50,232 nucleotides of DNA, taken from NCBI GenBank assembly GCA_050955025.1, contig JBPBQX010000330.1, forward strand, positions 1 through 50,232. The letters are read 5' to 3'. Made by a program: the position numbers and the translations under genes. Numbering within the stretch: the stretch's first letter is position 1; the number at the start of each line of letters is the position of its first letter. This DNA comes from Janthinobacterium lividum (lineage in GTDB: Bacteria > Pseudomonadota > Alphaproteobacteria > Acetobacterales > Acetobacteraceae). Below the pieces are notes generated by a model. That model did not search any database, was not told where the DNA came from, and was given only the letters and a program-made list of their open reading frames with translations. Of this stretch, positions 3,465-29,776 are shown piece by piece.

Positions 3465-3573
3465 CCTGCAAGCTCTGCGGCATGTGGGCAGCCGTCGAGG
3501 GTCTGCGTTTGGCGAGGTGATACGGGATCGCGGCACCCCGGCGAGCGGGTGGCCGAACAGGCGGGAGCGGACA

Positions 3574-3963: not shown

Positions 3964-3970
3964 AAGGGAA

Positions 3971-4091: not shown

Positions 4092-4133
4092 TTCCTGCAA
4101 GGAAGGTTCACCGACGGGCGGCGGGAGAGATTG

Positions 4134-4556: not shown

Positions 4557-5000
4557 GGAAGGGGTCGGTTGTGGATCCGAGCAAGTTTACACTTCTCATT
4601 CCTGCCGATCCCTGTTGATGATCCAAACCCTGACATTCCAGGGACGACGGACAGGGTGGAAAGGAAGACGGCTGCTAGGACCGGATCGTAGGGCTTTGGC
4701 CAAGCCCATTGCCGTGAGGCAGACGCGTATGCTCCCAACCATTACCGGTTCCAAAACGCAGGACGACGGTGGCTTCTACGCGACGCCTAGTCCGTTTCAT
4801 TGAAGTGGTAACCTTCTAGGAAAATGCAACAATGGCCAAGCAGCAACAGCATGTGCCGGATTAAAGAATTTGGTACCTGGTTTCAGGACTCCTTCAAATC
4901 TCTGTTAAGCTGACTTCATTGGGATCGGACAGCGAGTGAAGGGCCGAACGTCGTCGCCTAGAACAAAAAGGCTGGCGCACGGCAACAAGCGGAGGTGTCT

Positions 5001-6350
5001 ATGAAGACGTTTGCGGAAACCCTCATCGCGATAGACGCCTTCTGGCAAATGAACGCCTCTTTCGCAGCGCCAGGGCATCTGCGAGATACACTGTTTACAT
5101 GGCTGGACGAGCACGACTCCGAAGGAGCAACGCCGATCCGGTCCATTTTGAAGGACTTCTTTGGCGGACTTCCGATTGAAGTAGAAACATTTCTTCTTGA
5201 CCCGGCCGAGAGAGCTTTTGCTCGCCACATTGCGACACTTCAGCCTTATGCAATGTTCCTGGGAAATCCTCCACCGGCAGTCTCGACCCACCTGACCACC
5301 GAAAGCAGTGATGATTTTCTCGCTGACAACTCGGGGCTGTGGGGTGTATTTCGCATCGTCAACCTGTTGCTGATGAGTTCCATCCGACCCAGCAAGCAGA
5401 TCGCCATCGTCACTTCGGTACGCGACGAGGGCATATCGCTTCTCGAATGGATCGCGCATTATCGCGGCCTCGGTGTGCGCGATTTTTTTGTCTATACAAA
5501 TGACAACGCTGACGGCTCTGATCTCGTTTTAGACTTGCTCGCGAAAAACCGTATTATTAATCTCATCAGAAACACTGTTATGACGGCGAGATCCATCCAA
5601 GCGAAAGTGATGGAACATTCAATACACATGCTCGATGCACTTCGAGAGTACGAGTGGGTATTTTTCATAGACGTAGACGAGTTTTTTATTCCACGCATAG
5701 GGAACAGGTCCACTCTGAGCAACGTGATCCAGAGGCTTAGCAGCAGTTTTGAACGTGATGCCCCTTCGTCGATCTCGTTCCACTGGAAGTGGTTTGGCAG
5801 CGAGAACAAGTTCGAGCGATCCGAAGGCCTGTTGTTGGAGCGCTTTCTGCATTCCATCCACAACGAGCATGTCAAGAGCTTGGTGCGGTTGCGCGACGTG
5901 GTCTCGATGCAGCGCGTCCACGTGCCTGTCCTGGTACCATCGGCCTGGGGTGTTACGTCGGATCTACGACCGTTTGATCTGAGCGGGGTTGGTGTCAAGG
6001 CCGTTCATGGCATAGGACAACTCAATCACTATTGGAACAAGTCGTTTCAGGAGTTTGCAATCAAGCGAAGCCGGGGTCGGATTTCAGGCTCCAAGCAGGG
6101 AGAGGCATTGGATTTTTCGACATTCTTCCTTTGGGGGTCGAACGACAGGCGCGGCAATTTTGATCCTCCTCCGGTCGAGATCGTATCGCGGACTAAACAG
6201 GTGCTGGCAGAACTGCTTGCCATTGCAGGCATGCGCGAGAGCGTTGCGTGTGTGGAAAACCTATTCCAAGCACGGGTGGCCGAACTCGACAGTGATCTTT
6301 CACTGCGCCGAATTTACGACGCTCAGGTATCCAGCCGCGTAGCCACCTGA
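5001..6350 (+). CDS. GT-A fold glycosyltransferase (Glyco_tranf_2_4 / GT92-like) with an unassigned N-terminal extension of about 130 aa
   Basis: ATG at 5001 lies 5 nt after GGAGG. The core IAIVTSVRDEGISLLEWIAHYRGLGVRDFFVYTNDNADGS...EYEWVFFIDVDEFFIP...FHWKWFGS fits the PF13704-type family. It lies in the AT-richer insert. Confidence 0.7.
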   Translation: MKTFAETLIAIDAFWQMNASFAAPGHLRDTLFTWLDEHDSEGATPIRSILKDFFGGLPIEVETFLLDPAERAFARHIATLQPYAMFLGNPPPAVSTHLTTESSDDFLADNSGLWGVFRIVNLLLMSSIRPSKQIAIVTSVRDEGISLLEWIAHYRGLGVRDFFVYTNDNADGSDLVLDLLAKNRIINLIRNTVMTARSIQAKVMEHSIHMLDALREYEWVFFIDVDEFFIPRIGNRSTLSNVIQRLSSSFERDAPSSISFHWKWFGSENKFERSEGLLLERFLHSIHNEHVKSLVRLRDVVSMQRVHVPVLVPSAWGVTSDLRPFDLSGVGVKAVHGIGQLNHYWNKSFQEFAIKRSRGRISGSKQGEALDFSTFFLWGSNDRRGNFDPPPVEIVSRTKQVLAELLAIAGMRESVACVENLFQARVAELDSDLSLRRIYDAQVSSRVAT

Positions 6351-6408
6351 ATGCCGACTGATGATTAAGTCCGGAATCGGATCGCAGTCAGATGTAAGGG
6401 AGATTTCC

Positions 6409-7677
6409 ATGCGCACTCTTGCTGAAGAAATGGAATCTGATTACTCGAAGGGCTCGGAGAATTACCAGCCTTGGGTAAAACGAAGCGAAAGTGCGGACGC
6501 AGAACAGCAGATATTCCAAGAACTTCTTCGTAAGAATGCTGGTGCGCATTCAATCGGACCCGACTGTTTCATATCTCCAGCAGCGCAGATTCATACTAAT
6601 TATTTTTCTATAGGCAAAAACAGCTGGATTGCCGCAGGAGCCATCGTTCGGGGACACGTAACGATTGGCGAGAACAGCTCCATTAATCCCTATGCCCATG
6701 TCGCAGGAAAGGTGTCGATCGGCAGCGGCGTGCGAATTGCAGGCTTGGTGTCGATCTACGGATTTAATCATGGTCACCAACGAACAGACGTGTGGATACA
6801 CGAGCAGCCTCATACTTCGATCGGCGTCACAGTCGGTGACGGAACGTGGATAGGCGCAAATTCAGTCGTGATCGATGGAGTCAACATCGGCTCGCACTGC
6901 ATTGTTGCAGGGGGTTCCGTAGTCACCAAGGATGTGCCGGACTACTCGATAGTTGGTGGCAATCCGGCAGAATTAATTAGAAACCGAAGAGTTTCACAGC
7001 AACCAAGCGAAAACGAAGACACCAAGAAGAACTTGCAAGTTAGGAAACTACTTTATTCCGAGGATCCGTACGTCAATATTCCTTTTAGCTACCCTAAGGA
7101 TCTGCAGGGATGGGACTCAGAACATGATATTTTTTTTGATACTATTGCATCAGTCAAGCCAAAATTGATAGTCGAAGTTGGAACGTGGAAAGGTGCATCA
7201 GCGATGCACATGGTGTCTGTTTGTCGCCGCCTCGGCCTGGAAGCCGAGATTGTGTGCGTCGACACTTGGCTCGGCAATTGGCAGCATTGGAGTCGGCGGG
7301 AAGGTGGAGTCGGCAGCCAGTCCGACTTGAAGATATACAATGGTATGCCTCGCCTGTATTATCAATTCCTGTCGAACGTTGTTCATTGCGGCTACGAGGA
7401 CATGGTGACACCCCTGCCTCTCACTGGGGTAGCCGGCGCAAAACTGTTTGAGCATCTAAAATTAACGCCTGATGTTATTTACGTAGATGGCGATCATGAA
7501 TACGAGTCCGTTCTGTTTGATCTAAGACTTTGGATCAAGCAGCTTGCACCCGGCGGGGTTCTAATCGGGGATGACTACACATGGCCCAGCGTCAAACGCG
7601 CAGTGGGCGAGATTATGTCTGCTGAAAACCTGCGGATTCAGGTTGTCGGGCAGAAGTTTACTCTTAGCAGAGCTTGA
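6409..7677 (+). CDS. fusion protein: left-handed beta-helix (hexapeptide) acyltransferase plus class I SAM-dependent methyltransferase (Methyltransf_24-like)
   Basis: ATG at 6409 follows GGGAG. The N-terminal half has hexapeptide repeats (...IGKNSWIAAGAIVRGHVTIGENSSINPYAHVAGKVSIGSGVRIAG...VGDGTWIGANSVVIDGVNIGSHCIVAGGSVVTKDVPDYSIVGGNPA). The C-terminal half has LIVEVGTWKGASAMHM...VIYVDGDHEYESVLFDLRLWIKQLAPGGVLIGDDY. Confidence 0.75.
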   Translation: MRTLAEEMESDYSKGSENYQPWVKRSESADAEQQIFQELLRKNAGAHSIGPDCFISPAAQIHTNYFSIGKNSWIAAGAIVRGHVTIGENSSINPYAHVAGKVSIGSGVRIAGLVSIYGFNHGHQRTDVWIHEQPHTSIGVTVGDGTWIGANSVVIDGVNIGSHCIVAGGSVVTKDVPDYSIVGGNPAELIRNRRVSQQPSENEDTKKNLQVRKLLYSEDPYVNIPFSYPKDLQGWDSEHDIFFDTIASVKPKLIVEVGTWKGASAMHMVSVCRRLGLEAEIVCVDTWLGNWQHWSRREGGVGSQSDLKIYNGMPRLYYQFLSNVVHCGYEDMVTPLPLTGVAGAKLFEHLKLTPDVIYVDGDHEYESVLFDLRLWIKQLAPGGVLIGDDYTWPSVKRAVGEIMSAENLRIQVVGQKFTLSRA

Positions 7678-7732
7678 GGCAGCCGGTAGTCAGGTCACAC
7701 ATGGTCGGAAAGGAGTGTCACCGTCCTGTCTT

Positions 7733-8875
7733 CTACCATCTCACGGCACGCGCGGCCGAGATGTTGGCGGTGTCGGGGCCGGAAGGTGTGTACGACGGGA
7801 TCAGCGCGTTGCCACCCTCGTCGCACTCATCCCACGAGTAGATGATGATTGCCTTGGACTCGCACGCCGCTGGACGTGCCGCGACGAGGTCGGCCGCAGC
7901 CTGGAGATGCGCGGTCAGCTGCGCCGGGCGCGGCGCGACCCAGAAGCGCGACATGTTCGCGCCCGGACTGCTCCGGTAGAACGGAGGGGGGTTCTGCCTG
8001 CGCGGCCGCAGGTCCCATCCCGTCTGGCAAATCGGCACGATCGGCGTGCCCGTCGCCGCCATCGCCTGCCAGTAGGCCCGGATCGCCGGGTCCGCCTTCT
8101 CCCAGGCCAGCGCGTCGCCTGAAGCCGCCACGCAGCTGTAGCTGCTGATCGCGTCCGCGCCGGTCAAGGCCGCCAGGGAAGCGGCGAGGGCCGGCCCGCC
8201 CGCCATCAGGACGATGTAGGGCGCCGCCAGTCCAGCGCCGTGTGCCGCCGCCTTGAGCGCGTCGAAAGCCGCGCGCACGTTCTCCCACCGCCCGTTCCAG
8301 GCGGTCCCGAGAGCGTGCTGATCGTCCACGAACACGTAGACCAGCGGCCTGCCATTAAGCACAGACTGGTAGTTGTGCTGCCGAAAGTACCCGAGGTAGT
8401 CGGGAACCGCGGTGTTCCACCGCGCGGCTGGCCCAATGCGCGAGAACTGGAGCAGCAGGCACCAGTTCATCCGCTCCCGGATGCTGCTGGCCTGGTGGAG
8501 GGCCCAGGCCCTCTGCATCGGACTTGCTGGCGACTGCTGCCCGTACCAGCAGTAGGCCCAGTAGCGCAGCCCAGCACTGGCAGCGTAGTTGATCTCGGCA
8601 TCCATGCAGGCCTGCGTGCTGCCGTCGATCACGGTGCGGGTGGCCGATGCAGGCGCCGCGAACCAGGGCGCTCGGCTGCGCCATTGCGGCGGCCCGAGGT
8701 CGAGGTCGACCGCGATGTTGACGGCGGACTCGCTGCTCCCCGGGGCGGAGCCATACCATGCGTCCCAGCGTATGGCACCGGGGATGCTCCTGGCTGGGCC
8801 GGCTGCGGCGGCCCGCACCGCGGCAGCCAGGGACAGGGCCGTGGCACCGGCGGCGAAACCTCGGCGGCCGATCAC
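7733..8875 (-). CDS. Tat-exported hypothetical protein, possible glycoside-hydrolase-like (GH99/WbsX-type) fold
   Basis: 380-aa ORF with a GTG start. The N-terminus IGRRGFAAGATALSLAAAVRAAAAG looks like a twin-arginine signal. The C-terminal IIIYSWDECDEGGNAL echoes the AWNEWCEGAYLEP motif of the WbsX-like domain in the 1320-aa protein. Function is weakly supported. Confidence 0.55.
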   Translation of the reverse strand: MIGRRGFAAGATALSLAAAVRAAAAGPARSIPGAIRWDAWYGSAPGSSESAVNIAVDLDLGPPQWRSRAPWFAAPASATRTVIDGSTQACMDAEINYAASAGLRYWAYCWYGQQSPASPMQRAWALHQASSIRERMNWCLLLQFSRIGPAARWNTAVPDYLGYFRQHNYQSVLNGRPLVYVFVDDQHALGTAWNGRWENVRAAFDALKAAAHGAGLAAPYIVLMAGGPALAASLAALTGADAISSYSCVAASGDALAWEKADPAIRAYWQAMAATGTPIVPICQTGWDLRPRRQNPPPFYRSSPGANMSRFWVAPRPAQLTAHLQAAADLVAARPAACESKAIIIYSWDECDEGGNALIPSYTPSGPDTANISAARAVRW

Positions 8876-8943
8876 AGCCGGGCGGCCTGCACCGGCAAGC
8901 CGGGTGCGGCATTCCGGGACCGGGTGCCTCGGGCAGGACGTGC

Positions 8944-9792
8944 ATGGTTTCGGTGGACAGTCGAGTTGCCTACACGCAATCGTTGTGCCCGCAGTCCGGT
9001 CTGTCGAAAGGGAACGCCCTGTCGCAAGCCGGAAACTATGCTGCCCTTGCCTTCGAGCATGGCGGGCATTGCCCGATCTGCGATCGCGACGTCACCTTCG
9101 TCGCTAATGGTCCCTATTTCCGCAATACGCTGCGATGCAGCGTGTGCCGGTCGGCACCGCGTAACCGTGCCCTCATGCAGGTGCTGTCCAGGCACGCTCC
9201 CGGCTGGCGCGAGTTGGCCATCCATGAGGGTTCGCCCGGTTGGGACTCGTTCAGCAGGCGGCTGATGAGCGAGTGCAGGCACTACACCGCGTCGCAGTTC
9301 GACGCGACCGTGCCGTTCGGCTCGACTGTCGAGGCCACGTCCCTTCCTTGCGGGCGCTATCGCAGCGAGAACCTCGAAGGCCAGACTTTCGCCAGCGAGT
9401 CGTTCGACCTCGTGATCACGCAGGACGTGTTCGAGCACGTGTATCGTCCCGATCTGGCAATCCGCGAGATCGCCAGGACGCTGAAGCCCGGCGGTGCGAC
9501 GCTGATGACCGTGCCGCTCACCCGGCGGGGCCAGCCGTCGCGGCGGCGTGCATCCCTGGAGGGCAGCGTCGTGACCCGTCACCTGCAACCAGAACACCAC
9601 GGCAATCCGATCGGCACGGACGGTTCTCTGGTCACGATCGACTGGGGCTACGACATCGTCGCGTATCTGCAGAAGCATTCCGGCCTGTGCTTCATGATGC
9701 TGGCGATCGACGACATTGACCTCGGGATACGCGCCGAGATGAACGAGGTGTTGGTCGGCTTCAAGGTCCTTCCACCGGATCTTTCGCCCTAG
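8944..9792 (+). CDS. class I SAM-dependent methyltransferase with an N-terminal Cys4 zinc-ribbon-like motif
   Basis: ATG at 8944 (MVSVDSR...). CPICDRDV...LRCSVCRS, then SFDLVITQDVFEHVYRPDLAIREIARTLKPGGATLMTVP (Methyltransf_11-like). Confidence 0.8.
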   Translation: MVSVDSRVAYTQSLCPQSGLSKGNALSQAGNYAALAFEHGGHCPICDRDVTFVANGPYFRNTLRCSVCRSAPRNRALMQVLSRHAPGWRELAIHEGSPGWDSFSRRLMSECRHYTASQFDATVPFGSTVEATSLPCGRYRSENLEGQTFASESFDLVITQDVFEHVYRPDLAIREIARTLKPGGATLMTVPLTRRGQPSRRRASLEGSVVTRHLQPEHHGNPIGTDGSLVTIDWGYDIVAYLQKHSGLCFMMLAIDDIDLGIRAEMNEVLVGFKVLPPDLSP

Positions 9793-9951
9793 ATCCCGCG
9801 GTGGTTCGGGTGCCTGACGGTGATTGAACAAGGCTGATCTCCATGTCCGAAAGGCGCCCGGAGACCGGGAAACACAACCTGCAGCAACACTATGCCGAAA
9901 ATTTCCCGGATAGGCTGAAATTTCTGGCGTCCTTCGTCAGGGGCTGTAGGT

Positions 9952-12900
9952 ATGGTGGTAGGCACTCAGCCACGCAGGATCCTGACCGGCGACATGACGG
10001 ACTTCCTGGAACAACTGGTTGGTCGGCGCGGTTCACTCTTGGTGAACAGGCCTGCGGAAATGTCCGCGGGCGTCGATCAGGAAAGAGCCGGCGAGCAGCA
10101 GGCCTTCGAGGCAGGCTTGAGGGCGCACCAGCTCAGGATCATCACGCAGTCCGGGCTGTTCGACGAGGATTTCTACCTGTCGACCTACCCGGATGTGCTT
10201 CACGCCGACATTCCCGCGCTCGACCACTTCTTTGGTTTTGGCTATCTGGAAGGCCGCAGTCCGAACCGTTATTTCGAGCCGTTGTGGTATCTCGGACGCA
10301 ATCCCGACGTCGCGGCAACGGGAATGCACCCGCTTCTGCACTACATCCTGCACGGTGACCGTCAGGGCCAGGACCCGGGGCCGCTTTTCGATTGCGCTTG
10401 GTATCGCGTCCGGTACGACGTCGCGGCTGAGCTCTGCTCGCTCTCGCACTACCTCGCCAGCTGCGAGACCACCCCGCTCAGCCCTATCCCCGACTTCGAT
10501 GCGGAGTACTACGCGGCCCACAACCTCGACGTCGTGGCCGCAAAGGTCGACCTGTTCCAGCATTTCCACAACTACGGCCACCGGGAATGCCGCAATCCCT
10601 CGGCCGAGTTCGACGTCAAGTTCTACGTGGAGCGATATCTGCACGGCGATACGGGCGGCAACCCGCTGCTGCACTACGTGACACACAGGGGCGAGCCGGG
10701 CGTGTTCGGCAGGCTCCCGGACGACGAGCCCACGGTGTCGCGCGAGGTCAGGCACTTCACGAAGCCGAGCCCGGATTTCGAGGAGTTCCGCGGATTGGAC
10801 CGGGGCGCGCGGCCCAGGGTCAAGCTGCTGGCCTACTACCTCCCCCAATTCCACGCCTTCGAGGAGAACGACAGCTGGTGGGGGAAGGGCTTCATCGAGT
10901 GGACGAACATCGCCCGCGGCTCGCCCCGCTTCGTCGGTCACTACCAGCCGCGCGTTCCTCGCGATCTCGGATTCTATTCGCTGGACTCCATGGACACGAT
11001 GCGGCGCCAGATCGACATGGCGCAGGCCGCCGGGGTGCACGGCTTCGTGTTCTACTACTACTGGTTCAACGGCCGCCGGCTCATGGACAGGCCGCTGCAG
11101 CGTTTCCTCGCCGAGCCCGCGCTGGACATGCCGTTCGCGCTGATGTGGGCGAACGAGAACTGGACCAGGCGGTGGGACGGCGCCGACAGCGAGGTGCTGA
11201 TCTCGCAGGACTACCGCGCCCAGGACGACGCCGCGATGGCCGCGGAGTTCGCCGCGCACTTCAAGGATCCGCGCTACATCCGCCTGCAGGGGCGCCCGGT
11301 GCTGATGATCTACCGGCCCGGCCTCATCCCCGAGCCGGCGCGCACCATCCGGCGCTGGCGCGAGATGTTCCGCTCGGAGTTCGGCGAGGACCCGATCCTG
11401 GTGATGGCGCAGAGCTTCGGCGCGGACGACCCCAGGGCGTTCGGCCTGGACGGCGCGATCGAGTTCCCGCCGCACAAGCTGACGAGCAACCTGGCGCCGG
11501 CGAACCCCGGCTTCCGCTACCTGGACTACGATTTCAGGGGCAAGATCTACCACTACGACGACGTGGTCCGCGTGTCGCTCGACGCGCCCGATCCCGGGTT
11601 CCCGCTGGTCAAAACGGCCGTGCCGAGCTGGGACAACGACGCGCGTCGGCAGGGCAACGGCATCGTCCTCGCTGGCTCCACGCCCGCCAAGTACGAGACC
11701 TGGATGTCGCAGCTCGCGGCCAAGGCGCAGGCCGCCCCGTTCTTCGGCGAAGCCATTGTCTGCGTGAATGCCTGGAACGAGTGGTGCGAGGGCGCCTACC
11801 TGGAGCCCGACCTGCATTTCGGCGCGGCCTACCTGAACGCCACCGCGCGCGCCGTGTCGGGACGTGGCCGCCAGGAGGCCGTGCCGCGGATCGTCCTCGT
11901 GGGCCACGACGCGTTCCCGAGCGGCGCACAGCAGCTCCTGCTCGGCACGGCGCGCATGCTGCACGCGGCGTTCGGCATGGAGTGCGAGATCCTGCTGCTC
12001 GATGGCGGCGTGCTGCTCGACGCCTACATCGCGCAGGCGCCGACCACCGTCATCGCGTCCGACGCCCAGCTTTCCGCCAAGCTGCAGAGCCTTGCCGAGG
12101 CAGGGTTCGCCGGCGCCGTGATCAACACCGCGGCCGCGGCACGCGTGACCCCCTACTTCCAGGCCGCAGGCCTGCGCACGGTGCTGCAGATCCACGAGCT
12201 GCCTCGGATCATCCGCGAGAAGCACCTCGTCGCGAGCGCGAAAGCCGGCGTGGACGCGGCAGACCGCGTGGTATTCGCCGCCGAGTTCGTGCGCGACTCG
12301 ATCCTGGCCGAGCTTGGCGTCGCGGCCGACGAGCGCATGGTCGTCATGCCACAGGGGTCATACAGGAACGTCGCGTTCAGCGAGCCGGACGGCACCGCGG
12401 CGCGCCTCGGGCTCGGTCTCGGCGTGCAGGACAGGATGGTTCTCGGCGTCGGCTACGCGGACCTGCGCAAGGGGTTCGACCTGTTCCTGCAGCTCTGGCG
12501 GCTGCTGCAGGCCCCGGCCGGGCCGGGGCGCACCTGCCTAGTGTGGGTGGGAGGCATGGACCCGGCGCTGCGCGACTGGCTCGGCGCGGAGATCGCCGAG
12601 GCGGAAGCGTGCGGGACCTTCCGCATGGCCGGCTATCGCGACGACATGGCGGCGGTGTTCTCGGCCGCGGACGCCTTCGTGCTGACCTCGCGCGAGGACC
12701 CGTTCCCGACCGTGGTGATGGAGGCGCTCGGCGCCGGCCTGCCGGTGTTCGCGTTCGACCGTGCCGGGGGCATCCCCGACATGCTGCGCGAGACCGGGGA
12801 AGGCCACGTTCTGCCCTACGGCGACATCGTCGCGATGGCCGACGCGGTGCGCGTGGCGCTTGCCGCCGGCATCTCGCCGGAGCAGCGCGCCGCCCGCCAG

Positions 12901-13914: not shown

Positions 13915-13945
13915 CGGTCCCTCAAGCAGGTCAGGATCCACCCAG

Positions 13946-14389
13946 ATGTACGTGCCTCCCCTCGACAGCATCCTCCGCTCCATCGGCATGGATCGTGCGT
14001 CCTTCAACACGGCGAGATCCGTGAAGATTCCCAAGGAGCTGTTCAACCTCCTGCTGCAGGTGGCCGTCGCTTCCAGCGACTTCAACGAGGCGGGGTACGT
14101 GCGGGAGAACCCGGACATCGCCGCCGCCGTCCGCGCCGGTTCGGTCGAGGACGCACGCGCCCACTACATCGGCTACGGATTCCTCGAGGGTCGCCTGGGC
14201 GCGACGCCCAACGTGGACGAGCGCTGGTACATGCAGACCTATCCCGATGTCGCCCAAGCCGTGAAGCAGGGCAAGGTCGCGTCCGCCGGCGAGCACTACA
14301 ACGTCATGGGCGCTGCAGAAGGCCGCAGCCCGAGCCCCGACCACACCGCGGTCGCCGTCCAGTGGAAGCGGGCCCTGGCCAAAGCCTGA
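13946..14389 (+). CDS. 147-aa protein consisting essentially of two copies of the island-specific aromatic repeat module
   Basis: ATG at 13946. FNEAGYVRENPDIAAAVRAGSVEDARAHYIGYGFLEGR and VDERWYMQTYPDVAQAVKQGKVASAGEHYNVMGAAEGRSP match the repeats in the 1320-aa and 837-aa proteins. Confidence 0.6.
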   Translation: MYVPPLDSILRSIGMDRASFNTARSVKIPKELFNLLLQVAVASSDFNEAGYVRENPDIAAAVRAGSVEDARAHYIGYGFLEGRLGATPNVDERWYMQTYPDVAQAVKQGKVASAGEHYNVMGAAEGRSPSPDHTAVAVQWKRALAKA

Positions 14390-14789
14390 GGCAGGCGCCC
14401 GGACGGAAGGCGCTGCCGCGCGGACAGGATCGACCGCCGGGTGATGGTCGCGATCGCGGCGGCAGCAGCGCCGGTGCCTTTCCCGGACTGGTGCCGGCAG
14501 CCGCCCCGCGATCCTTCAGGCCCGCGGCCGGACTGGTCGAACACCTGCATGGCCCGCTTGTGTCGGGTGCCTCGGAACGGGCGGCGAGGCTGTGGGCGGG
14601 TCGTGACCGGGCCCCGGGCCCGGCTGCCGGCTCCAGGCGGCCCGTGCCCTGGAGGCGGGCGCATGCTTGATCCGGCACGACGTTGCGTCTTCCATGGCCG
14701 CGCTCGCGCTTCCTGCGCGGCGCGCCGGCTGCCGGTCCCCGACGGGACAGGGCCACGGCTGTGGAGGAGCGGGCGCTGCCCGGTGTCGC

Positions 14790-17960: not shown

Positions 17961-18004
17961 CTGCCTGGTCACGGGCCGGGTCCGGGATGGCGCGGGACGA
18001 ACAG

Positions 18005-18116
18005 GCAAGGTTGAGGCTCTGCCTCAAACTCCGCCAAAGGCTCGCCTTTGGAATCCACGACTTAAGAGAAGGGTTTCCAAAGGTCCCTGCCCTTTGGCGG
18101 GTTCGGGCAGAGCCCG
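18005..18116. repeat. composite two-arm REP/MITE-like element
   Basis: The left arm GCAAGGTTGAGGCTCTGCCTCAAACTCCGCCAAAGGCTCGCCTTTGGAATCCAC is identical to that of the copy at 24351. It is followed by the spacer ...TTAAGAGAAGGG... and an inverted right arm TTTCCAAAGGTCCCTGCCCTTTGGCGGGTTCGGGCAGAGCCCG. Confidence 0.85.
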
Positions 18117-18136
18117 ATTTATCCTTGTCCAGGACA

Positions 18137-21699: not shown

Positions 21700-21958
21700 G
21701 GCTGCGGAGGACGAACAGCGGCAATCCCGTCGGTCTGGGTCAAGAGGTATATCCCGTTCTGGTCGCAGCGTGCAGCAGGATAATCACCGCCGGCATGGCT
21801 TCCGATCCATGATGCACGTCCTGCACGAACCTTGGCTATCCTGACCCTGAAAGCAGAGGTGTTGCGGTTGTATGCAACCATTGCTTGTGCGATTCATTCG
21901 GCCATGTTAGCCGGGTTGCGACGCATACCGATACCTTTCCTTACCCTTGGGGCATACG

Positions 21959-24325: not shown

Positions 24326-24350
24326 GGCCCGCGCTCCTGATGCGCGGCCG

Positions 24351-24469
24351 GCAAGGTTGAGGCTCTGCCTCAAACTCCGCCAAAGGCTCGCCTTTGGAAT
24401 CCACTACCTAAGAGATGGGTTTCCAAAGGCCCCTGGCCTTTGGCGGGTCCGGGCAGAGCCCGGCCTTGC
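24351..24469. repeat. composite two-arm REP/MITE-like element
   Basis: Same architecture as 18005..18116, bounded by GCAAGG ... CCTTGC. The right arm TTTCCAAAGGCCCCTGGCCTTTGGCGGGTCCGGGCAGAGCCCGGCCTTGC carries compensated stems. It starts 26 nt after the beta-roll gene stop. Confidence 0.85.
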
Positions 24470-27400
24470 GTGCTTGCGGACCGGCGCCCTCCTGCAGCGC
24501 GGCACGTCGTGAACGACGCCCTTGATCGGGCGGCGCACGACGCCGTCGAGCGCGGCCGTGCGGCGCTGCGGGCCGGCGAGCGGACGGAAGCGCTGCGCTG
24601 GCTCGACCGCGCACACCGGCTGGCGCCGGGTGACCGCTCGGTGGCGCTGCTGCTGGCGTCCGCCTTCACCGGGGTCGACGCCCCGCATGGGCGGACACTG
24701 CTCCGCGACCTGGTGGCGGCGGCACCGGACATGCGCGACGCGCGGGTGGCACTGGTTCTCTCGGAACTGGGCCTGGGCGGGGCGGCAGAAGCGGCACGGC
24801 AGCTCGGACGCCTGCTGATGGGCATGGCGCCGCCGCCCGATGCCGGGTTCGCGCGCGTGGCCGGCGCCGTGGCGCGCGCGGCCCGAGCGCCGGGGTGGAT
24901 CGGCGCCGACAGCCGTGGACTCCTGCTGGTCTGCGCGGAGCCTGTCCCGGGCGCCTCGGATGGCAGCAAGTCCCACGGCACGCGTCCTGTCAGGGTCGAG
25001 ATCGCCGTGAACGGCGTGCGGGTCGATGGCATCGTTGCGGACGGCATTGTCCGGAACAGGGCTCTTGCGGCCGGGCGGACGGGTGTGATGACGGCGACCT
25101 GCGGCGGGTTGGCGCTGCTGGGCAGCGGGGTCGATCTCGCGGCGCTGCGGCGCACACGTGGCACGGCCTGGCTGGAGCCGGACGGATCGCTGACGGGGTG
25201 GGCTTGGCTGCCGGGCGACCCGGACCGGGGGCCGTTCCTGGAGGTGCATGGGCAAGGAGCGGCGGGCGCGTCGCGTCCCATACGGCTCCGGGCCGTTGCG
25301 GAACACGGTGGCGGGAACGGTGCGGAGCGACGGCGCGGGTTTCGCGTGACGGCGCAACGCCTTTCCGGGGCCGACACGATCAGGGTCATGGGGCCGGACG
25401 GCCGGGAACTGACCGGCAGCCCGCTCTCCGGCAGGGCTGAGCGACAGGCCGGACAGGCGGCCGCGGCGGCGCTCGGACAGGCGACCAGTGGCCGGGAAGC
25501 GAGCCTGCGTGTCGCGGACAACGCGCCCCCTGCGTCGGTGGATCTGTGGCGACCGCTGCCGGCCGGGCTCGGCATGCCGCCGGAAGGCCGCGCCGCCACG
25601 GCAGGCGGGATCTCGGCGACCGCACGCGCGATCCCGGCGCGCCGTCCGGTCGATGTCGTGATGCCGGTGCACCGGGGCGAGGCGGATTTCACTGCCTGCC
25701 TGGCAACGCTGCTGCGCGACCGTGCGGCGCGGCGGCAACCCGCGGAGCTGCGCATCGTGGTGGTCGACGACGCCTCGCCTGATCCGGCGCTGCGCGGTGC
25801 GGTGGCGGCGGCCGAGGCACGCGGCGACATCGTCCTGCTGCGCCACGCCAACAATCGGGGCTTCCCCGGGGCGGCGAACACCGGGCTGCGCCATGCCCGC
25901 ACGGACGGACCGCGCGACGTCGTGCTGCTCAACCCGGACACCCTGCTGCCGACGGACTGGCTCGGACGGATGGCAGCGGCGGCATACGGCGCAGCCGACG
26001 TGGGCAGCGTCACGCCGATGACCGACGACGGCTCGATCCTGTCCTACGCGGCCGACAACGCCTCCGGGGACGCGGAGGTGCAGGACCTGGCACAGGGCAT
26101 GGCGCGGCTGGACCGGATCGACTCGATGTTCCGGGCGGCCAATGGCGACAGGGTCGTGGCCCTGCCGACCGGGATCGGCTTCTGCATGCTGCTGCGCCAC
26201 GACTGCCTGGCCGAGGTCGGGCTGCTGCGCGAGGACGTGTTCGCGCAGGGCTACGGCGAGGAGAACGACTGGTGCCTGCGCGCCGGCCATCTCGGGTGGC
26301 GCCACGTGGCCGCGACGGGCGTGTTCGTGGCCCATCGTGGCGGGCGCTCGTTCGGGCCGGCGAGGGCCCATCTGATGGCGCGCAACATGGCGCTGCTGAA
26401 CCGGCTGCACCCCGGCTATGACACGCTGGTGGCGCGGTTCGAGGCGGCGGACCCGCTGGCGCCGGCGCGCAGGCGGGTGGACCGGCTGCGCTGGGCGGCG
26501 GGGCGGCGGGCGGGCGCGGTGGTGCTGGTGACGCACGCGCTCGGGGGCGGCGTGGAGCGCCATCTGCGCGAGCGCGTCGCGGCGATCCGCGACGACGGGC
26601 TGCGCGCGGTGGTGCTGCGCCCGGCCGCAGCAGGGCAGGAGCCGGCCGCGGGGACCGACAGGACGGAGGCGGCCAGCCGGGAGAAGGCGTGCGCCGTCTC
26701 GGACGGGGTGGATGGCCGCTTCGCCGACCTGGGTTTCGCGATGCCCACGGAGATGGCGGCGCTGGCGCGCCTGCTCCGGGGCGACGGGGTGCGGCGGGTG
26801 GAGCTGCACCATCTGCTCGGCCATGCGCCGGAGATCTCGGGACTGGCCGAGATGCTGGAGGTGCCGTGCGACGTCGTGGTGCACGACTACGCGGCATGGT
26901 GCCCGCGCGTGTCTCTGTGCGGCGCGAACCGCCGCTATTGCGGCGAGCCTGTCGACCAGCTGACCTGCGAGGATTGCGTCGCCGATCTCGGCAGCCGGCT
27001 CGACGAGCGGATCGGGGTGGCCGCGTTGCGGGCGCGGTCCGGGCGGATGCTGCGCACGGCCCGGCGGGTGGTCGCGCCCTCGGCCGACGCGGCGGAACGC
27101 ATCGCGCGGCAGTTCCCCGGGGTGGCCGCGGTGGTGGCGCCCTGGGAGGACGATGCGCGGCCGCCACACGACCTCGGGCGGGACCGGGGCGGTGCGGCGC
27201 GGGGCAGCGCGGCGGGCGTGCGGATCCTGGTGATGGGAGCGATCGGCGTGGAGAAGGGCTACGACGTGCTGCTGGGCTGCGTGCGCGACGCCGGGCGGCG
27301 CGGCCTGCCGATGGACTTCGTGGTGGCGGGGCACACCATGGACGATGCGCGGCTGATCGAGGCAGGCCCGGTGTTCGTCACCGGCCGCTACGAGGAGCAC

Positions 27401-27673
27401 GAGGCCGTCGTGCTGGCGCGCCGGCAGGGCGCGCAGTTCGGCTTCGTGCCCTCGGTATGGCCGGAGACCTGGTGCTACGCGTTGTCGGAGCTGTGGCGGG
27501 CGGGGCTGGACGTGGCGGCGTTCGCCCTGGGCGCGCAGGCCGAACGCATCCGCAACGCGGGGCACGGCTTGCTGCTGCCGCCAGGGCTGCCGGCGGGCCA
27601 GGTCAATGACGCGCTGCTGCGTGCGGCGCTGGACGCCGGCCGCACGGAGCGTCAGATGGCCGGGGCAGGCTGA
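24470..27673 (+). CDS. glycosyltransferase of about 1070 aa: TPR-like N-terminus + unassigned domain + GT2 (GT-A) + Cys-cluster GT-B (GT4-like) domain
   Basis: The start is uncertain (TTG 24440 lies inside the REP element; GTG 24470; GTG 24509). GT2 domain VDVVMPVHRGEADFTACLATLL...IVVVDDASPD...NRGFPGAANTG...LLNPDT...YGEENDWCLR. C-terminal domain VVLVTHALGGGVERH...HHLLGH...VVHDYAAWCPRVSLCGANRRYCGEPVDQLTCEDC...PSVWPETWCYALSELWRAG. Confidence 0.8.
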   Translation: MLADRRPPAARHVVNDALDRAAHDAVERGRAALRAGERTEALRWLDRAHRLAPGDRSVALLLASAFTGVDAPHGRTLLRDLVAAAPDMRDARVALVLSELGLGGAAEAARQLGRLLMGMAPPPDAGFARVAGAVARAARAPGWIGADSRGLLLVCAEPVPGASDGSKSHGTRPVRVEIAVNGVRVDGIVADGIVRNRALAAGRTGVMTATCGGLALLGSGVDLAALRRTRGTAWLEPDGSLTGWAWLPGDPDRGPFLEVHGQGAAGASRPIRLRAVAEHGGGNGAERRRGFRVTAQRLSGADTIRVMGPDGRELTGSPLSGRAERQAGQAAAAALGQATSGREASLRVADNAPPASVDLWRPLPAGLGMPPEGRAATAGGISATARAIPARRPVDVVMPVHRGEADFTACLATLLRDRAARRQPAELRIVVVDDASPDPALRGAVAAAEARGDIVLLRHANNRGFPGAANTGLRHARTDGPRDVVLLNPDTLLPTDWLGRMAAAAYGAADVGSVTPMTDDGSILSYAADNASGDAEVQDLAQGMARLDRIDSMFRAANGDRVVALPTGIGFCMLLRHDCLAEVGLLREDVFAQGYGEENDWCLRAGHLGWRHVAATGVFVAHRGGRSFGPARAHLMARNMALLNRLHPGYDTLVARFEAADPLAPARRRVDRLRWAAGRRAGAVVLVTHALGGGVERHLRERVAAIRDDGLRAVVLRPAAAGQEPAAGTDRTEAASREKACAVSDGVDGRFADLGFAMPTEMAALARLLRGDGVRRVELHHLLGHAPEISGLAEMLEVPCDVVVHDYAAWCPRVSLCGANRRYCGEPVDQLTCEDCVADLGSRLDERIGVAALRARSGRMLRTARRVVAPSADAAERIARQFPGVAAVVAPWEDDARPPHDLGRDRGGAARGSAAGVRILVMGAIGVEKGYDVLLGCVRDAGRRGLPMDFVVAGHTMDDARLIEAGPVFVTGRYEEHEAVVLARRQGAQFGFVPSVWPETWCYALSELWRAGLDVAAFALGAQAERIRNAGHGLLLPPGLPAGQVNDALLRAALDAGRTERQMAGAG

Positions 27674-27680
27674 GCAGGAC

Positions 27681-28784
27681 ATGAACATGGCACAGGGCGA
27701 GTCGCGGACGCGCGAGACCCGGAACGGCACCTCGCGCCCGGGCGAACCGCCGCACGGCGCTGCGCCCGCGCCTGTCGGGGGCGTGACGGTCCCGGCACAC
27801 CGACGCGACGCGGCGGAGGCCGGGCTGGAGGTGACGGGGCAGTTCCTGGCGTTCGAGACCGGGCTGTATGCCGTCGACGTCGTGTCGGCGCGCTCGGTGG
27901 CCACAGACGTGGGGTTGCGCCTGCCCTGCGTACGAATCCAGCCGCTGCCGGCGTCGGCGGGCGCCGGCCAGGCGTTCGTGTCCGGGGCGGCAGAAGGCGG
28001 TTGGCTCGCCGGGGGAGCCACGGCGTTCGTGCTCGTGGTGGGCGGGCGGACGCGGGTGATGCTGACGGTCTACAAGGCCGCGGGGGGCATGGCACCTCCG
28101 GAACTGCGGGTCCGCCCGCTCGGCGCCGCCATGGGGCTAACTGTCCCGGAAGTGTCGGAGGCACCGGGACCTGACGCGCCGGAGCCGCCGCGCAGGACGG
28201 TGGTCGTGACCCCCGCGGTGCCTGCGGCCGCCACGCCGCCCGTGCAGGCGGCGGACGTGCCACCGGCACAGGTCGCGCACCCGGCGCCCATTCCGGGTGC
28301 GGGGCGTCCCGGCGTCGTGCTGATGGCACACGTGCAGGGCGTGGGCGACGTGTCCGCCGATGCGCAGGGCTGGGCGGGGCGGGCAGGCAGCCGGGCGCCG
28401 GTGGAAGGCTTCTCGGTGGCGGTCGACGGCGTGGACGCGTCGGAGATCGAGTACCAGGCGATCCTCGGCGACCAGTGGAACACGCCCTGGACCAGGGGCG
28501 GCGCGTTCTGCGGCAGCCGCGGGATGGCGCTGCCGATCCTGGGCTTCCGGGTGCGCCTGGTGGGCGCAGCCACGGAGCGTCTCGAATGCCGCTACTGGGG
28601 GGCGTTCGTCGGCAGGGGCGAGGTCGGGCCGCTGGGCAACGGCGCGGCGTGCCAGGCCGGGCAGGCGTTCCTGGAAGCCCTGCGGATCGTGGTCACGCCG
28701 CGCGGGTCAGGGAACGCCCTGCCGGAAGCGTTGCCCGCCGCGGCGGAGGGCATTCGCGCGAAGGCGCCACGCGGCCGGCGGTGA
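27681..28784 (+). CDS. hypothetical protein with three C-terminal ChW-like (hydrophobic-W type) repeats and a Pro/Ala-rich linker
   Basis: ATG at 27681, 8 nt after the upstream stop. C-terminal repeats LMAHVQGVGDVSADAQGWAGRAGSRAPVEGFSVAVDG / IEYQAILGDQWNTPWTRGGAFCGSRGMALPILGFRVRLVG / LECRYWGAFVGRGEVGPLGNGAACQAGQAFLEALRIVV. The domain assignment comes from motif memory only. Confidence 0.55.
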   Translation: MNMAQGESRTRETRNGTSRPGEPPHGAAPAPVGGVTVPAHRRDAAEAGLEVTGQFLAFETGLYAVDVVSARSVATDVGLRLPCVRIQPLPASAGAGQAFVSGAAEGGWLAGGATAFVLVVGGRTRVMLTVYKAAGGMAPPELRVRPLGAAMGLTVPEVSEAPGPDAPEPPRRTVVVTPAVPAAATPPVQAADVPPAQVAHPAPIPGAGRPGVVLMAHVQGVGDVSADAQGWAGRAGSRAPVEGFSVAVDGVDASEIEYQAILGDQWNTPWTRGGAFCGSRGMALPILGFRVRLVGAATERLECRYWGAFVGRGEVGPLGNGAACQAGQAFLEALRIVVTPRGSGNALPEALPAAAEGIRAKAPRGRR

Positions 28785-28815
28785 ACCCGTCGGGGCAGCG
28801 GCGGGCGTGGGACAG

Positions 28816-28869
28816 GAAAGGCCAGAGGCTCTGCCTCTGGACTCCGCCAAAGGCTCGCCTTTGGAATCC
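28816..28869. repeat. REP-like double-hairpin element (single arm, orientation B)
   Basis: GAAAGGCCAGAGGCTCTGCCTCTGGACTCCGCCAAAGGCTCGCCTTTGGAATCC. It lies between the convergent stops at 28784 and 28913. Confidence 0.85.
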
Positions 28870-28912
28870 GATGTCGAAGGAAGCGGCTTGAGGACCCCGG
28901 TCCTGCCTTGCT

Positions 28913-29776
28913 TCAGAACGTGCCCACGAAGCGGGCCGGGATGCGCCAGAACTCCTCGGCGACAAGGCCGAGGTCGAGTCGGTAGAACTCCGCCCCTCGC
29001 GCGTGCTGCTCGTGCTCGATCCGCTGCAGCCAGTCGCGCAGCGGCGGCTCGGCCGGGTCGAGGGTGACGTCGGTGCGCGACGGCAGGTGCCCGACGCCGT
29101 ACAGGAAATCGTTGATGAACTGCTCGTCGCCGATCGCCTGGTGCTCGTTGACGCCGGGGTGGGCACGGGCCATGGCGCGGGTCTTGGCGAGGCGCTTCAG
29201 GCCGTGCTGCAGGTCATGGCGGCGGAGATGGAAGTTGAACAGCCGGTCGAAGCGTATCTCCGCGTCGGCGCTGTGGAAGCCGGGCTGCCAGCGCACCGGG
29301 CGGCGGATCATCACCGGCTTGCACATCGGGCTGACGAAACGCACCCAGCCGCGCTGCAGGCTGATCGGACGCGACGGGTCGATCTCCGGCTCGAGGCGCG
29401 GCGCATGGTTCACGTCCAGCCCAATGGCCGTGACCACCGGCAGCGTGCAGCGCCCGCAGAACTCCGCGAGGCCGCCGGCCAACAGCGGGTCGGCGACCAG
29501 CAGCTCGTCCACGTCGGTGTGGAACACGACATCGTAGTAGGCCAGCAGGCCGGCGGCGATGTGGCTCACGCAGTCCGCGCGCCTGGTCTCGTCGAGCGGG
29601 GTGCGCGGCATGCGGATGCGCGTCGCCTTGCCGAGCGACTCGGTGCTGCCGTCGTCCGAGCCGTGGTCGATCACGAAGCAGTTCTCCGCGCCGAGCTGAC
29701 GGGCGTAGTGGCGCAGCCAGATCGGCAGGAAATACGCCTCGTTCCAGGTCATCGTCAGGGCGGCGATCCGCACCAT
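28913..29776 (-). CDS. GT-A fold glycosyltransferase (Glyco_tranf_2_4 / GT92-like)
   Basis: MVRIAALTMTWNEAYFLPIWLRHYARQLGAENCFVIDHGSDDGS...YDVVFHTDVDELLV. Same family pattern as 5001..6350, but with host-like GC content. Confidence 0.75.
   Translation of the reverse strand: MVRIAALTMTWNEAYFLPIWLRHYARQLGAENCFVIDHGSDDGSTESLGKATRIRMPRTPLDETRRADCVSHIAAGLLAYYDVVFHTDVDELLVADPLLAGGLAEFCGRCTLPVVTAIGLDVNHAPRLEPEIDPSRPISLQRGWVRFVSPMCKPVMIRRPVRWQPGFHSADAEIRFDRLFNFHLRRHDLQHGLKRLAKTRAMARAHPGVNEHQAIGDEQFINDFLYGVGHLPSRTDVTLDPAEPPLRDWLQRIEHEQHARGAEFYRLDLGLVAEEFWRIPARFVGTF

Follow-up and report, generated by a model that had tools for sequence, protein, structure and literature searches.

We analysed a stretch of 50,232 nucleotides (hereafter the window; contig JBPBQX010000330.1 of assembly GCA_050955025.1). 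An initial annotation, made from the letters alone, had picked out at 4557-29776 a glycan-assembly island around a secreted beta-roll repeat protein. Here we describe the gene of that beta-roll protein, the genes for soluble glycosyltransferases (GTs) that surround it, and their relatives in other genomes. The window has a G+C content of ~72%, and genes were called by frame analysis of third-position G+C (GC3) because long spurious open reading frames (ORFs) overlap the real genes. The called genes were annotated with Pfam and NCBIfam. Almost all of the gene content that the initial annotation had listed was present, with the corrections given below. Judged from related loci, the conserved core consists of 18137-29776 together with the DegT gene at 14667-15944. 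Its genes are as follows.

14667-15944, plus strand: DegT/DnrJ/EryC1-family sugar aminotransferase (Pfam E 8e-65)
18137-19240, minus strand: probable GT-A transferase (GT8/Nucleotid_trans-like) of ~350 aa with an FDPD motif (sub-threshold in Pfam)
19186-21699, minus strand: 837-aa soluble protein with a disordered N-terminus, four ~38-aa repeats, a GT4-like C-terminal domain and a four-Cys cluster
21959-24325, plus strand: Gly/Thr/Ser-rich, Cys-free beta-roll protein, 788 aa from ATG or 792 aa from TTG
24506-27673, plus strand: soluble 1055-aa enzyme with tetratricopeptide repeat (TPR), GT2 and GT4-like domains (GTG start; Pfam)
27606/27681-28784, plus strand: ChW-like protein of ~365 aa (one ChW repeat, Pfam 24 bits, cut-off 22)
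28913-29776, minus strand: GT2_4 glycosyltransferase of 287 aa (Pfam E 5e-14)

The 788-aa beta-roll protein consists of 24.6% Gly, 11.4% Thr and 8.1% Ser (Ser and Thr together 19.5%), lacks Trp as well as Cys, and contains four copies of a ~133-aa repeat. It had been introduced as a 792-aa, Cys-free, RTX-like (repeats-in-toxin) protein with no N-terminal signal. The absence of Cys and of a hydrophobic N-terminus was confirmed, but the length of 792 aa applies only to the TTG start. The term RTX-like holds for the predicted fold, but the strict nonapeptide GGxGxDxUx does not occur (nine relaxed matches were found), and the Pfam family HemolysinCabind matched at only 33 bits (cut-off 23), over three stretches. 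Repeats such as GGGDGDYLEG deviate from the RTX consensus at one position. Pfam and NCBIfam gave nothing on this protein beyond Ca-binding repeat families. An exact-sequence look-up returned no record for it, while two other window proteins are recorded (P0121, P0241).

An AlphaFold2 model built with 24 homologs (pLDDT 86.8) showed a short N-terminal helix, a continuous solenoid over residues ~60-720 in which short strands recur at intervals of about 9 residues, and a small domain at the C-terminus. The best Foldseek matches were all beta-rolls of type I secretion system (T1SS) cargo. They comprised the MIS38 lipase of Pseudomonas (E 2e-4, probability 1.0), the RTX blocks of CyaA (probability 0.99), RsaA (5n8p, 6p5t and 6z7p; E 3e-3 to 2e-2, TM 0.15-0.21) and the R-modules of AlgE. 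The TM-scores were low overall (0.14-0.21), as is expected of long solenoids. The C-terminus agreed with the consensus of the 24 homologs, and the NCBIfam RTX and PueAB models aligned to the end of the protein. Given the beta-roll model, the fold matches to T1SS cargo and the family-consensus C-terminus, the protein is predicted to be built like type I secretion cargo. It looks like a degenerate member of the RTX proteins. Its resemblance to RsaA is generic, and RsaA was not among its named sequence matches.

The gene for the large TPR-GT2-GT4 enzyme starts 181 nucleotides past the end of the beta-roll gene (24506 and 24325, respectively), and this adjacency is kept in at least 15 loci. Single-sequence searches against the PDB with this enzyme and with the GT-A-like protein gave no matches. 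A profile of 38 homologs of the enzyme matched TPR proteins, including the TPRs of O-GlcNAc transferase (OGT), at E 9e-23, as well as GT-A enzymes. These matches are generic and do not separate a protein acceptor from a glycan acceptor. The GT-B part had no match among all PDB chains, either by single sequence or by the 38-sequence profile. The 837-aa protein gave a weak GT4 match (Pfam E 0.004) and fell into the same BLAST cluster as the TPR-GT2-GT4 enzyme, with its GT4-like half. Its ortholog in a related locus (L001) was 29% identical over 276 residues to the GT4-like half of the enzyme (taken from the TTG start, 1077 aa). On these similarities, we regard the 837-aa protein as a paralog of the enzyme's C-terminal half. 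The GT4-like domain of both the TPR-GT2-GT4 family (24506-27673) and the 837-aa paralog contains four invariant Cys residues (HDY..C.......C......YCGEP.....C..C). This pattern suggests a metal-binding cluster, which we take to bear only a loose resemblance to the iron finger of TibC.

The smaller proteins of the core were classified less firmly. The GT-A-like protein encoded at 18137 matched Nucleotid_trans (E 0.07) and GT8 (E 0.16), both below the Pfam threshold. Of the three small GT-A transferases claimed at the outset, those at 4995 and 28913 proved to be GT2_4 enzymes, but this one is a GT-A enzyme on sub-threshold matches only. The three giant transferases of 1320, 837 and ~1070 aa were all found, but the 837-aa member has only its weak GT4 match. 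In a close relative (L091), the stop codon of the 837-aa gene and the start codon of the GT-A-like gene overlap as ATGA, and the window has ATAA at this place (19186-19189, minus strand). The canonical ATG of the GT-A-like gene is lost in the window (ATA); going upstream, the GTG at 19240 is the next start in frame. Translation of the gene may be poor, or may begin at a rare start codon. The protein reported as a ChW-like repeat protein has a single ChW repeat just over the cut-off, but multiple repeats were not present. This appears to be a resemblance in one motif and not membership of the multi-repeat ChW secreted proteins. Its model (AlphaFold2, pLDDT 77.5) has two all-beta domains and a disordered linker. 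No signal peptide was found in it, and searches of the PDB with the single sequence or a 46-sequence profile gave nothing. Its named homologs are all annotated as hypothetical.

The gene order GT-A-like, 837-aa, beta-roll, TPR-GT2-GT4, ChW-like and GT2_4 was syntenic in eight relatives (L091-L094, L099-L101 and L001), of which the closer ones were found by searches with the ChW-like protein and by a metagenome scan. The beta-roll protein was 94% identical in L091, 86% in L092-L094, 75% in L099 and L101, and 43% in L001, its best database homolog. Five window genes are kept in L001, namely the ChW-like gene, the GT-A-like gene (65%), the 837-aa paralog (48%), the beta-roll gene (43%) and the TPR-GT2-GT4 gene (56%). 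The GT-A-like orthologs were 86-92% identical in L091-L094 and 88% in L099, the 837-aa orthologs 91% in L091 and 71% in L099, and the GT2_4 gene 87-95% in L013, L091-L094 and L099. DegT was 74-81% identical and lay directly beside the GT-A-like gene in L099 and L100. In four of the five closest database homologs of the beta-roll protein that were looked up, a transferase of the TPR-GT2-GT4 family (F0 type) and/or a ChW-like gene adjoins the homolog. The beta-roll gene is followed by a 1057-aa ortholog of the enzyme in L006 and by a ChW-like gene in L009. The GT2-GT4 enzyme that follows it in L003 was assigned to the family by clustering linkage only and had no direct BLAST match to the window enzyme.

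L099 represents the same chromosomal site, with an HbpS-like gene and a helix-turn-helix (HTH) gene that are 90% and 86% identical to those at 3484-4556 of the window. The order there is HTH, DegT, GT-A-like, 837-aa, beta-roll, enzyme, ChW-like and GT2_4. Therefore, positions 4557-14666 and a kinase/monooxygenase pair (15931-18008) are absent from this site, and DegT stays with the core. The single ~25-kb island of the initial annotation is thus a composite, since its left 10 kb and the kinase/monooxygenase pair are missing in L099. In contrast, the link that it had drawn between the beta-roll gene and the giant transferases was borne out as a conserved neighbourhood rather than a chance adjacency, given the synteny in eight loci. 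By its own terms, orthologous islands that keep the transferases and lack the beta-roll gene would have spoken against this link. The check does not refute it, as the orthologous loci L091-L094, L099-L101 and L001 always keep the beta-roll gene. Loci with the TPR-GT2-GT4/ChW pair and no beta-roll gene carry HlyB/HlyD genes in the same row instead.

Further features were seen around the module in individual relatives. In L001 (1-22307), several transposase or insertion sequence (IS) elements and a ParA-like gene surround the module, and a GT61-family gene lies between the beta-roll and enzyme genes. This context suggests that the module is able to move as a unit. A NosD/right-handed beta-helix protein of 468-531 aa is encoded just past GT2_4 in L092 and L093 (12223-13818), L094 (12633-14039) and L099 (18193-19677). 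L099 also has a further GT2-GT4 enzyme beyond GT2_4. Both the NosD-like gene and this enzyme gene are missing in the window and in L091.

The family of the large enzyme was followed by scanning one genome per GTDB species by alignment of the TPR-GT2-GT4 enzyme, with gene calling and clustering in 80 loci. At least 567 relatives were confirmed, nearly all of them in Acetobacteraceae or unclassified Rhodospirillales. The matches listed included the genera Acidiphilium, Acidocella, Lichenicola, Lichenicoccus, Acidisphaera, Sediminicoccus and Rhodovastum, and also Azospirillum doebereinerae. The closest among the matches listed (81%) came from an uncultured Acetobacteraceae metagenome-assembled genome (MAG), VT1_bin.3. 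Of 63 loci that could be scored on the downstream side, 54 had a ChW-like gene as the next gene after that of the enzyme. The upstream side could be scored in 55 loci. In 42, genes for an ATP-binding cassette (ABC) exporter, an HlyD-family protein and a Sel1-repeat protein lay directly upstream in the same orientation, in an operon-like row. A beta-roll homolog took this place in 7 (10 with detections by tblastn only), and neither was present in 6.

In the row with the exporter (type A), a 747-aa ABC exporter, a 472-aa HlyD-family protein and a 594-aa Sel1-repeat protein without signal peptide precede the enzyme and the ChW-like protein, and a GT4 (Glyco_trans_4_3) gene comes next after the ChW-like gene in most of these loci. 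The best half-transporter match of the ABC protein in the PDB was HlyB (query 29-725 against HlyB 13-704, E 1e-105), including the C39-like domain. This domain has no Cys at the catalytic position; the Azospirillum copy scored 25.7 bits with Pfam Peptidase_C39. A Cys-less N-terminal C39-like domain typifies the exporters of RTX proteins. Housekeeping genes (MetH, UvrD, PolA, Ppa and Upp) flank the type A row, and no candidate cargo gene was found near it. Priming transferase, flippase and polymerase genes were likewise absent among the annotated type A genes (L042, L026 and L027; Pfam). The conserved operon can be seen at L042 (4487-15120), at L026 (4477-15079) and at ~40 other loci, often with a divergent GNAT gene in front.

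Both locus types occur together in at least two MAGs, VT1_bin.3 (L011, L032) and T1888_bin.3 (L019, L028). In Azospirillum doebereinerae (L066), genes for the HlyB-type ABC exporter, beta-roll protein, enzyme, ChW-like protein and GT4 all lie within 15 kb. By gene neighbourhood, the soluble glycosyltransferases, the beta-roll protein and the HlyB/HlyD exporters form a genetic triangle. In the 50-kb window itself, Pfam annotation of the called genes gave no Wzx/Wzy, Wzm/Wzt, phosphoglycosyl transferase or T1SS genes, in agreement with what had been reported from the letters, and no linked ABC exporter, membrane fusion protein (MFP) or outer-membrane factor was found. The exporter is probably encoded elsewhere in the genome, because both locus types are present in two MAGs, one of which holds the closest of the listed matches to the window enzyme. 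In the 17 island proteins, no 19-residue segment exceeds a KD hydropathy value of 1.8, and no transmembrane helix is predicted in any of them. A membrane-helix-free 25 kb of glycan assembly genes is a striking property. Two alternatives raised at the outset received indirect support from these results: export and priming may be encoded elsewhere, given the MAGs with both locus types, and the giant enzymes may act directly on the protein, a possibility that fits the all-soluble enzyme set.

A hairpin-forming repeat is present in two copies in the island.

18004-18116, plus strand: 113-nt hairpin-forming repeat, copy 1, between the monooxygenase gene and the GT-A-like gene
24350-24462, plus strand: 113-nt hairpin-forming repeat, copy 2, 25 nt past the beta-roll stop and covering TTG 24440

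The two direct copies are 95% identical and fold into a long imperfect hairpin (-62.9 kcal/mol, z -5.9). The TTG at 24440, the alternative start of the TPR-GT2-GT4 gene, thus falls inside the element. Exact-match occurrences were found in L091, at the same place as copy 2, and in L013. The element could be of MITE or REP type (miniature inverted-repeat transposable element or repetitive extragenic palindrome), or an attenuator between structural and enzyme genes. It matched no Rfam family, nor did Rfam give any family elsewhere in the window. A promoter and terminator scan around the beta-roll gene gave nothing useful.

The left arm of the island (4557-14666) is the part that is absent from L099 at the same chromosomal site. 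Its genes are listed below, together with the positions of a repeat that it shares with the 837-aa gene of the core.

4995-6350, plus strand: GT2_4/GT92-like glycosyltransferase, 451 aa (Pfam Glyco_tranf_2_4 E 1e-15, Glyco_transf_92 E 6e-14)
6361-7677, plus strand: fusion of a hexapeptide acyltransferase and Methyltransf_24, 438 aa (Pfam Hexapep E 8e-18, Methyltransf_24 E 2e-19)
7733-8875, minus strand: protein with a twin-arginine-like signal, GRRGFAAGATALSLAAA in translation (no family)
8758-9792, plus strand: S-adenosylmethionine (SAM) methyltransferase, Methyltransf_11 (Pfam E 1e-10)
9952-13914, plus strand: 1320-aa soluble enzyme with N-terminal ~38-aa repeats, WbsX (GH99-like, E 4e-123), GT4 and GT2 domains (Pfam)
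13946-14389, plus strand: 147-aa protein of the ~38-aa repeat (repeat scan; no Pfam family)
10225-10257 and 14162-14326, plus strand, and 20677-21117, minus strand: positions of the ~38-aa repeat (repeat scan)

Homologs of the WbsX giant at 55-65% identity number more than 4344 and come from Roseomonas, Craurococcus, Rhodovastum and Microvirga. A gene for a protein of 147-150 aa follows it in L096, L097, L098 and L102 and is its constant partner. The ~38-aa repeat, ..FY(L)..(N/Y)PDV....NPL.HY...G..EGR.P, is found at the N-terminus of the giant, in two copies in the 147-aa protein and in four copies in the 837-aa protein of the core. A Pfam search relaxed to E 5 still gave no family for it. These enzymes have no membrane segment, and the repeat may serve them for docking or targeting. 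In L096 and L097, a 76% identical methyltransferase precedes the giant; a GT2_4 gene and the Tat-like (twin-arginine) protein lie further upstream on the opposite strand, and the low-G+C genes of the window are not there. The real start of the Methyltransf_11 gene is probably near 9142.

Other claims about this arm were upheld in part. The hexapeptide acyltransferase and the two SAM methyltransferase domains are present, but the acyltransferase and Methyltransf_24 form one fused protein; in L012 and L014, two distant beta-roll/GT loci, Hexapep and Methyltransf_24 are encoded alongside by separate genes. The Tat-exported glycosidase-like protein does show a twin-arginine-like signal, but the glycosidase part was unsupported, and its likeness to the WbsX/GH99-like domain was rejected as not significant (E 0.32). 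This protein had no Pfam, NCBIfam or PDB match, and a 37% identical homolog sits in the same position in L096 and L097. The G+C content of the island is patchy, with ~52% at 5000-8000 compared with ~72% for the window. The 4995-6350 gene had no homolog in the related loci and is absent from L096/L097 and L099; both ~52% G+C genes (4995-7677) are missing from the corresponding place in these loci. Their composition suggests a recent foreign origin.

Two loci place the giant in a wider context. In Roseomonas fluvialis (L098, 387-16685), a 241-aa canonical RTX gene, GT2, GT4, a 231-aa gene, two ABC genes and an AprE-type MFP gene are directly followed by the WbsX giant, the 147-aa partner, a 338-aa gene and a pyruvyl transferase. 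By analogy, this layout is reminiscent of the Sinorhizobium exopolysaccharide (EPS) II cluster. In Rhodovastum atsumiense (L102), the giant lies 5 kb from an enzyme 40% identical to TPR-GT2-GT4, and RmlC adjoins it. From these comparisons, the left arm and the core appear to be separable modules that nevertheless have a domain in common and recur together. Because of the shared ~38-aa repeat domain and this recurrence, we read the left arm (the WbsX giant, its 147-aa partner, the methyltransferase, the Tat-like protein and the low-G+C genes) as probably a separately mobile accessory module that extends or decorates the same glycan.

Two genes in the middle of the island had gone unmentioned in an otherwise largely correct gene list.

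15931-16575, minus strand: nucleoside/nucleotide-kinase-like gene (NCBIfam NF006743, 284 bits)
16572-18008, minus strand: luciferase-like monooxygenase (Pfam Bac_luciferase E 4e-39)

The monooxygenase is kept in L091-L094, loci that were covered from this gene rightward, and both genes are missing from the same site in L099. The pair is probably not part of the system. The flanks of the island consist of metabolic and transport genes, as had been claimed: a pyridoxal phosphate (PLP) enzyme, HisI, a dehydrogenase, KdgT, a short-chain dehydrogenase/reductase (SDR), S9 peptidases and a TonB system (Pfam and NCBIfam). On the left, a 335-codon ORF (3549-4556) runs over part of the HbpS-like gene (3484-3963); only the C-terminal part of this ORF (~4068-4556), with a DicA/Cro-type HTH, looks coding. 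To the right of the island, at 33374-34135, there is a LexA/S24-type gene. ARAGORN called a 100-nt tRNA-Cys at 41315-41414, inside a stretch read as protein-coding by frame analysis; the call is probably a false positive. PADLOC found no defence-system family among the core proteins, and the reading of the locus as a defence island was dropped.

Given the gene content, the reading we favour, with slightly less than even confidence, is cytoplasmic glycosylation of the beta-roll protein by the soluble transferases, followed by export through a type I system encoded elsewhere. DegT and the accessory acyl- and methyltransferases would provide an N-acylated and/or methylated amino sugar nucleotide. 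The TPR-GT2-GT4 enzyme, the 837-aa paralog, the GT-A-like protein and GT2_4 would then put sugars from nucleotide sugars directly onto Ser/Thr residues of the still-unfolded beta-roll protein in the cytoplasm, with the TPR domain holding the protein substrate and the ChW-like protein acting as an obligatory partner of the large enzyme. An HlyB/HlyD/TolC-type system encoded elsewhere would export the glycoprotein, likely one from a paralogous operon of the kind carried by relatives (ABC-HlyD-Sel1-TPR-GT2-GT4-ChW-GT4), and the protein would fold outside the cell as a surface or secreted beta-roll. The absence of transmembrane helices and of lipid-carrier genes fits direct cytoplasmic transfer. 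Type I secretion cargo bypasses the periplasm, and such cargo can be glycosylated only in the cytoplasm or outside the cell. The proposed route would resemble those of Aah/AIDA-I, TibC/TibA, HMW1C/HMW1 and FlmG/flagellin. The reported glycosylation of the RTX-type proteins SwmA and oscillin (PMC3034196) is in line with it as well. A broader version of this proposal, which we hold to be possible though doubtful, is a family-wide Acetobacteraceae system, so far undescribed, in which a core of TPR-GT2-GT4 and ChW-like proteins glycosylates T1SS cargo in the cytoplasm and passes it to an HlyB/HlyD exporter. On this view, the window would hold the version linked to the cargo, and the ABC-HlyD-Sel1-GT-ChW-GT4 operon would be the version linked to the exporter.

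Several points weigh against glycosylation of the beta-roll protein. The window lacks T1SS genes, and in most loci (type A) the enzymes have no cargo gene nearby. TPR domains also occur in glycan polymerases and are no proof of a protein substrate. The GT-B part of the large enzyme has no detectable relative among solved protein-glycosylating enzymes, and a Foldseek search of the PDB with the ChW-like model gave no informative fold match (nothing below E 0.1). The large GT2-GT4 and WbsX-GT4-GT2 enzymes, with their several domains, have the look of those that build polymers, processively or in several steps, in ABC-transporter-dependent pathways, and a TolC-type channel would not easily let a long glycan through. 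In L066, genes for Wzt (with Wzt_C), RgpF and a methyltransferase lie beside the module. What the analysis shows is which genes are present, how the protein is predicted to fold, the synteny and a statistical tie to T1SS genes, whereas the acceptor, the order of steps, secretion and localisation are inferred.

Some of these points fit better with transferases that build an O-antigen-like or exopolysaccharide polymer, with the beta-roll protein as its secreted partner. Priming and export genes would then lie elsewhere, or export would proceed through the ABC/MFP pair. The protein could be an S-layer protein or adhesin that docks on the polymer, as RsaA does, or a Ca-binding protein needed for polymer production or export, like ExpE1 with ExpD1/ExpD2. 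The GT2 plus GT4 and WbsX plus GT4 plus GT2 architectures and the methyltransferases are in line with this, as are Wzt and RgpF beside the module in Azospirillum, RmlC beside the giant in Rhodovastum and, in Roseomonas (L098), an RTX gene with GT2, GT4, two ABC genes and an AprE-type MFP before the giant, which resembles the logic of the exp cluster (PMC1403797). RsaA itself is among the fold matches of the beta-roll model, but that match is weak and generic (TM ~0.2), and no GDP-perosamine pathway genes were seen beyond the DegT-family enzyme. Moreover, Pfam gave no phosphoglycosyl transferase, flippase, polymerase or Wzm in the window or among the annotated type A genes, nothing in the 25-kb island is membrane-embedded, and the ABC partner is of HlyB type with the cargo-binding C39-like domain typical of RTX exporters. 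We consider such a polymer pathway the main alternative to glycosylation of the protein, although a somewhat unlikely one.

That the beta-roll protein is a secreted glycan-active enzyme (a glycanase, lyase or epimerase) that remodels a polymer, like PlyA/PlyB, ExsH or AlgE, is very improbable. RTX glycanases exported by T1SS are known in rhizobia (PMC1403797), and AlgE is represented among the fold matches, but only by its non-catalytic R-module. The model is a single uniform beta-roll over residues 60-720 with no catalytic domain, and Pfam and NCBIfam found only Ca-binding repeat families. The NosD/right-handed beta-helix gene that shares the locus in L092-L094 and L099 would suit such an activity, but it is absent from the window and L091. 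It is also conceivable, at a probability close to nil, that a lipopolysaccharide (LPS) or EPS cluster lies next to an RTX-like gene by chance. It is true that the core can be separated from the left arm and from the kinase/monooxygenase pair, and that the G+C content is patchy, but the same neighbours are kept down to 43% beta-roll identity, even among IS elements (L001), and the enzyme pair is otherwise tied to T1SS genes.

If the family-wide system is real, RTX/beta-roll proteins would have their first glycosylation pathway defined by genetics. Conserved linkage of soluble glycosyltransferase genes both with a beta-roll gene and with HlyB/HlyD genes makes the module a concrete and testable candidate for how such proteins gain their sugars. 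If the polymer pathway is true instead, it would be a polysaccharide pathway with type I components and without classical export genes, and would extend the poorly understood case of ExpE1 and EPS II. The module occurs in at least 567 loci among GTDB species representatives, and the named sources are mostly acidophilic, lichen- or soil-associated Acetobacteraceae. Given this distribution, the module probably shapes the surface of cells in a group that is ecologically common. Each part is of a known kind, and the combination is undescribed in the literature found. We found no paper that describes the operon or the glycosylation of T1SS cargo by dedicated enzymes; the only precedents were SwmA/oscillin, ExpE1, PlyA and ExsH. 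The portion of a T1SS review available to us (PMC8277102) does not mention glycosylated cargo.

Among known systems, the S-layer protein RsaA of Caulobacter had been proposed as the model for this island. The likeness lies in a beta-roll protein of similar size, the fold match, and the DegT-family and acyltransferase genes in the neighbourhood. The specific analogy was not supported; the RsaA match is no better than the other RTX beta-roll matches (Foldseek E 3e-3, TM ~0.2). RsaA is exported by the type I proteins RsaD/E and anchored on an N-acetylperosamine O-antigen, and it is not, to our knowledge, glycosylated itself. In contrast, the window has no adjacent rsaD/rsaE-like, O-antigen export or ligation genes; rsaD/rsaE and membrane export of a perosamine O-antigen are absent from the island, where only the DegT-family and hexapeptide acyltransferase genes are found.

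ABC-dependent O-antigen assembly (WbdA, WbdD and Wzm/Wzt) shares with the window the large soluble multidomain transferases and the methyltransferases, and a Wzt with Wzt_C is present in Azospirillum L066. It differs in that no Wzm/Wzt or initiating enzyme was found in the window or among the annotated type A genes, and the conserved ABC protein is of HlyB type. Dedicated cytoplasmic transferases that are encoded beside a repetitive beta-solenoid or surface substrate are known from AIDA-I/Aah, TibA/TibC, HMW1/HMW1C and flagellin/FlmG; the first two are heptosyltransferase systems, and FlmG is a TPR-plus-GT enzyme. As in these systems, a soluble transferase gene adjoins the gene of a beta-solenoid substrate, no lipid carrier or oligosaccharyltransferase takes part, and modification would come before export through a narrow channel. 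The fusion of TPR to a transferase is shared with FlmG and OGT, and the profile of the window enzyme matches OGT TPRs. Unlike in these systems, export would be type I and not type V or flagellar. The window enzymes are also unrelated to theirs in sequence and much larger, with two catalytic domains, a ChW-like partner and a second paralog. Membership of the bacterial autotransporter heptosyltransferase (BAHT) family found no support in the searches of the PDB with the GT-B part by single sequence and 38-sequence profile.

The EPS II exp/wg cluster of Sinorhizobium meliloti resembles the window in having a Ca-binding repeat protein among soluble transferases and no classical Wzx/Wzy (PMC1403797). 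For this galactoglucan, the RTX-like protein ExpE1 and the type I ABC/MFP pair ExpD1/ExpD2 are required (PMC1403797). It differs from the window, where the exporter and rml genes are absent and the transferases are fused multidomain proteins. An RTX-like gene and an ABC/MFP pair both surround the WbsX-giant homolog in L098, the type A operons have the ABC/MFP pair, and the window has the RTX-like gene only. The RTX protein in the L098 locus of EPS II-like logic has 241 aa, compared with 788 residues in the window. For the beta-roll protein itself, the nearest parallels by description are SwmA of Synechococcus WH8102 and oscillin of Phormidium. They come from a different phylum and have proposed motility roles, and the source (PMC3034196) names no enzymes for their glycosylation. 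Both are, however, RTX-type, Gly/Asp-rich, Ca-binding surface proteins that are reported to be glycosylated (PMC3034196).

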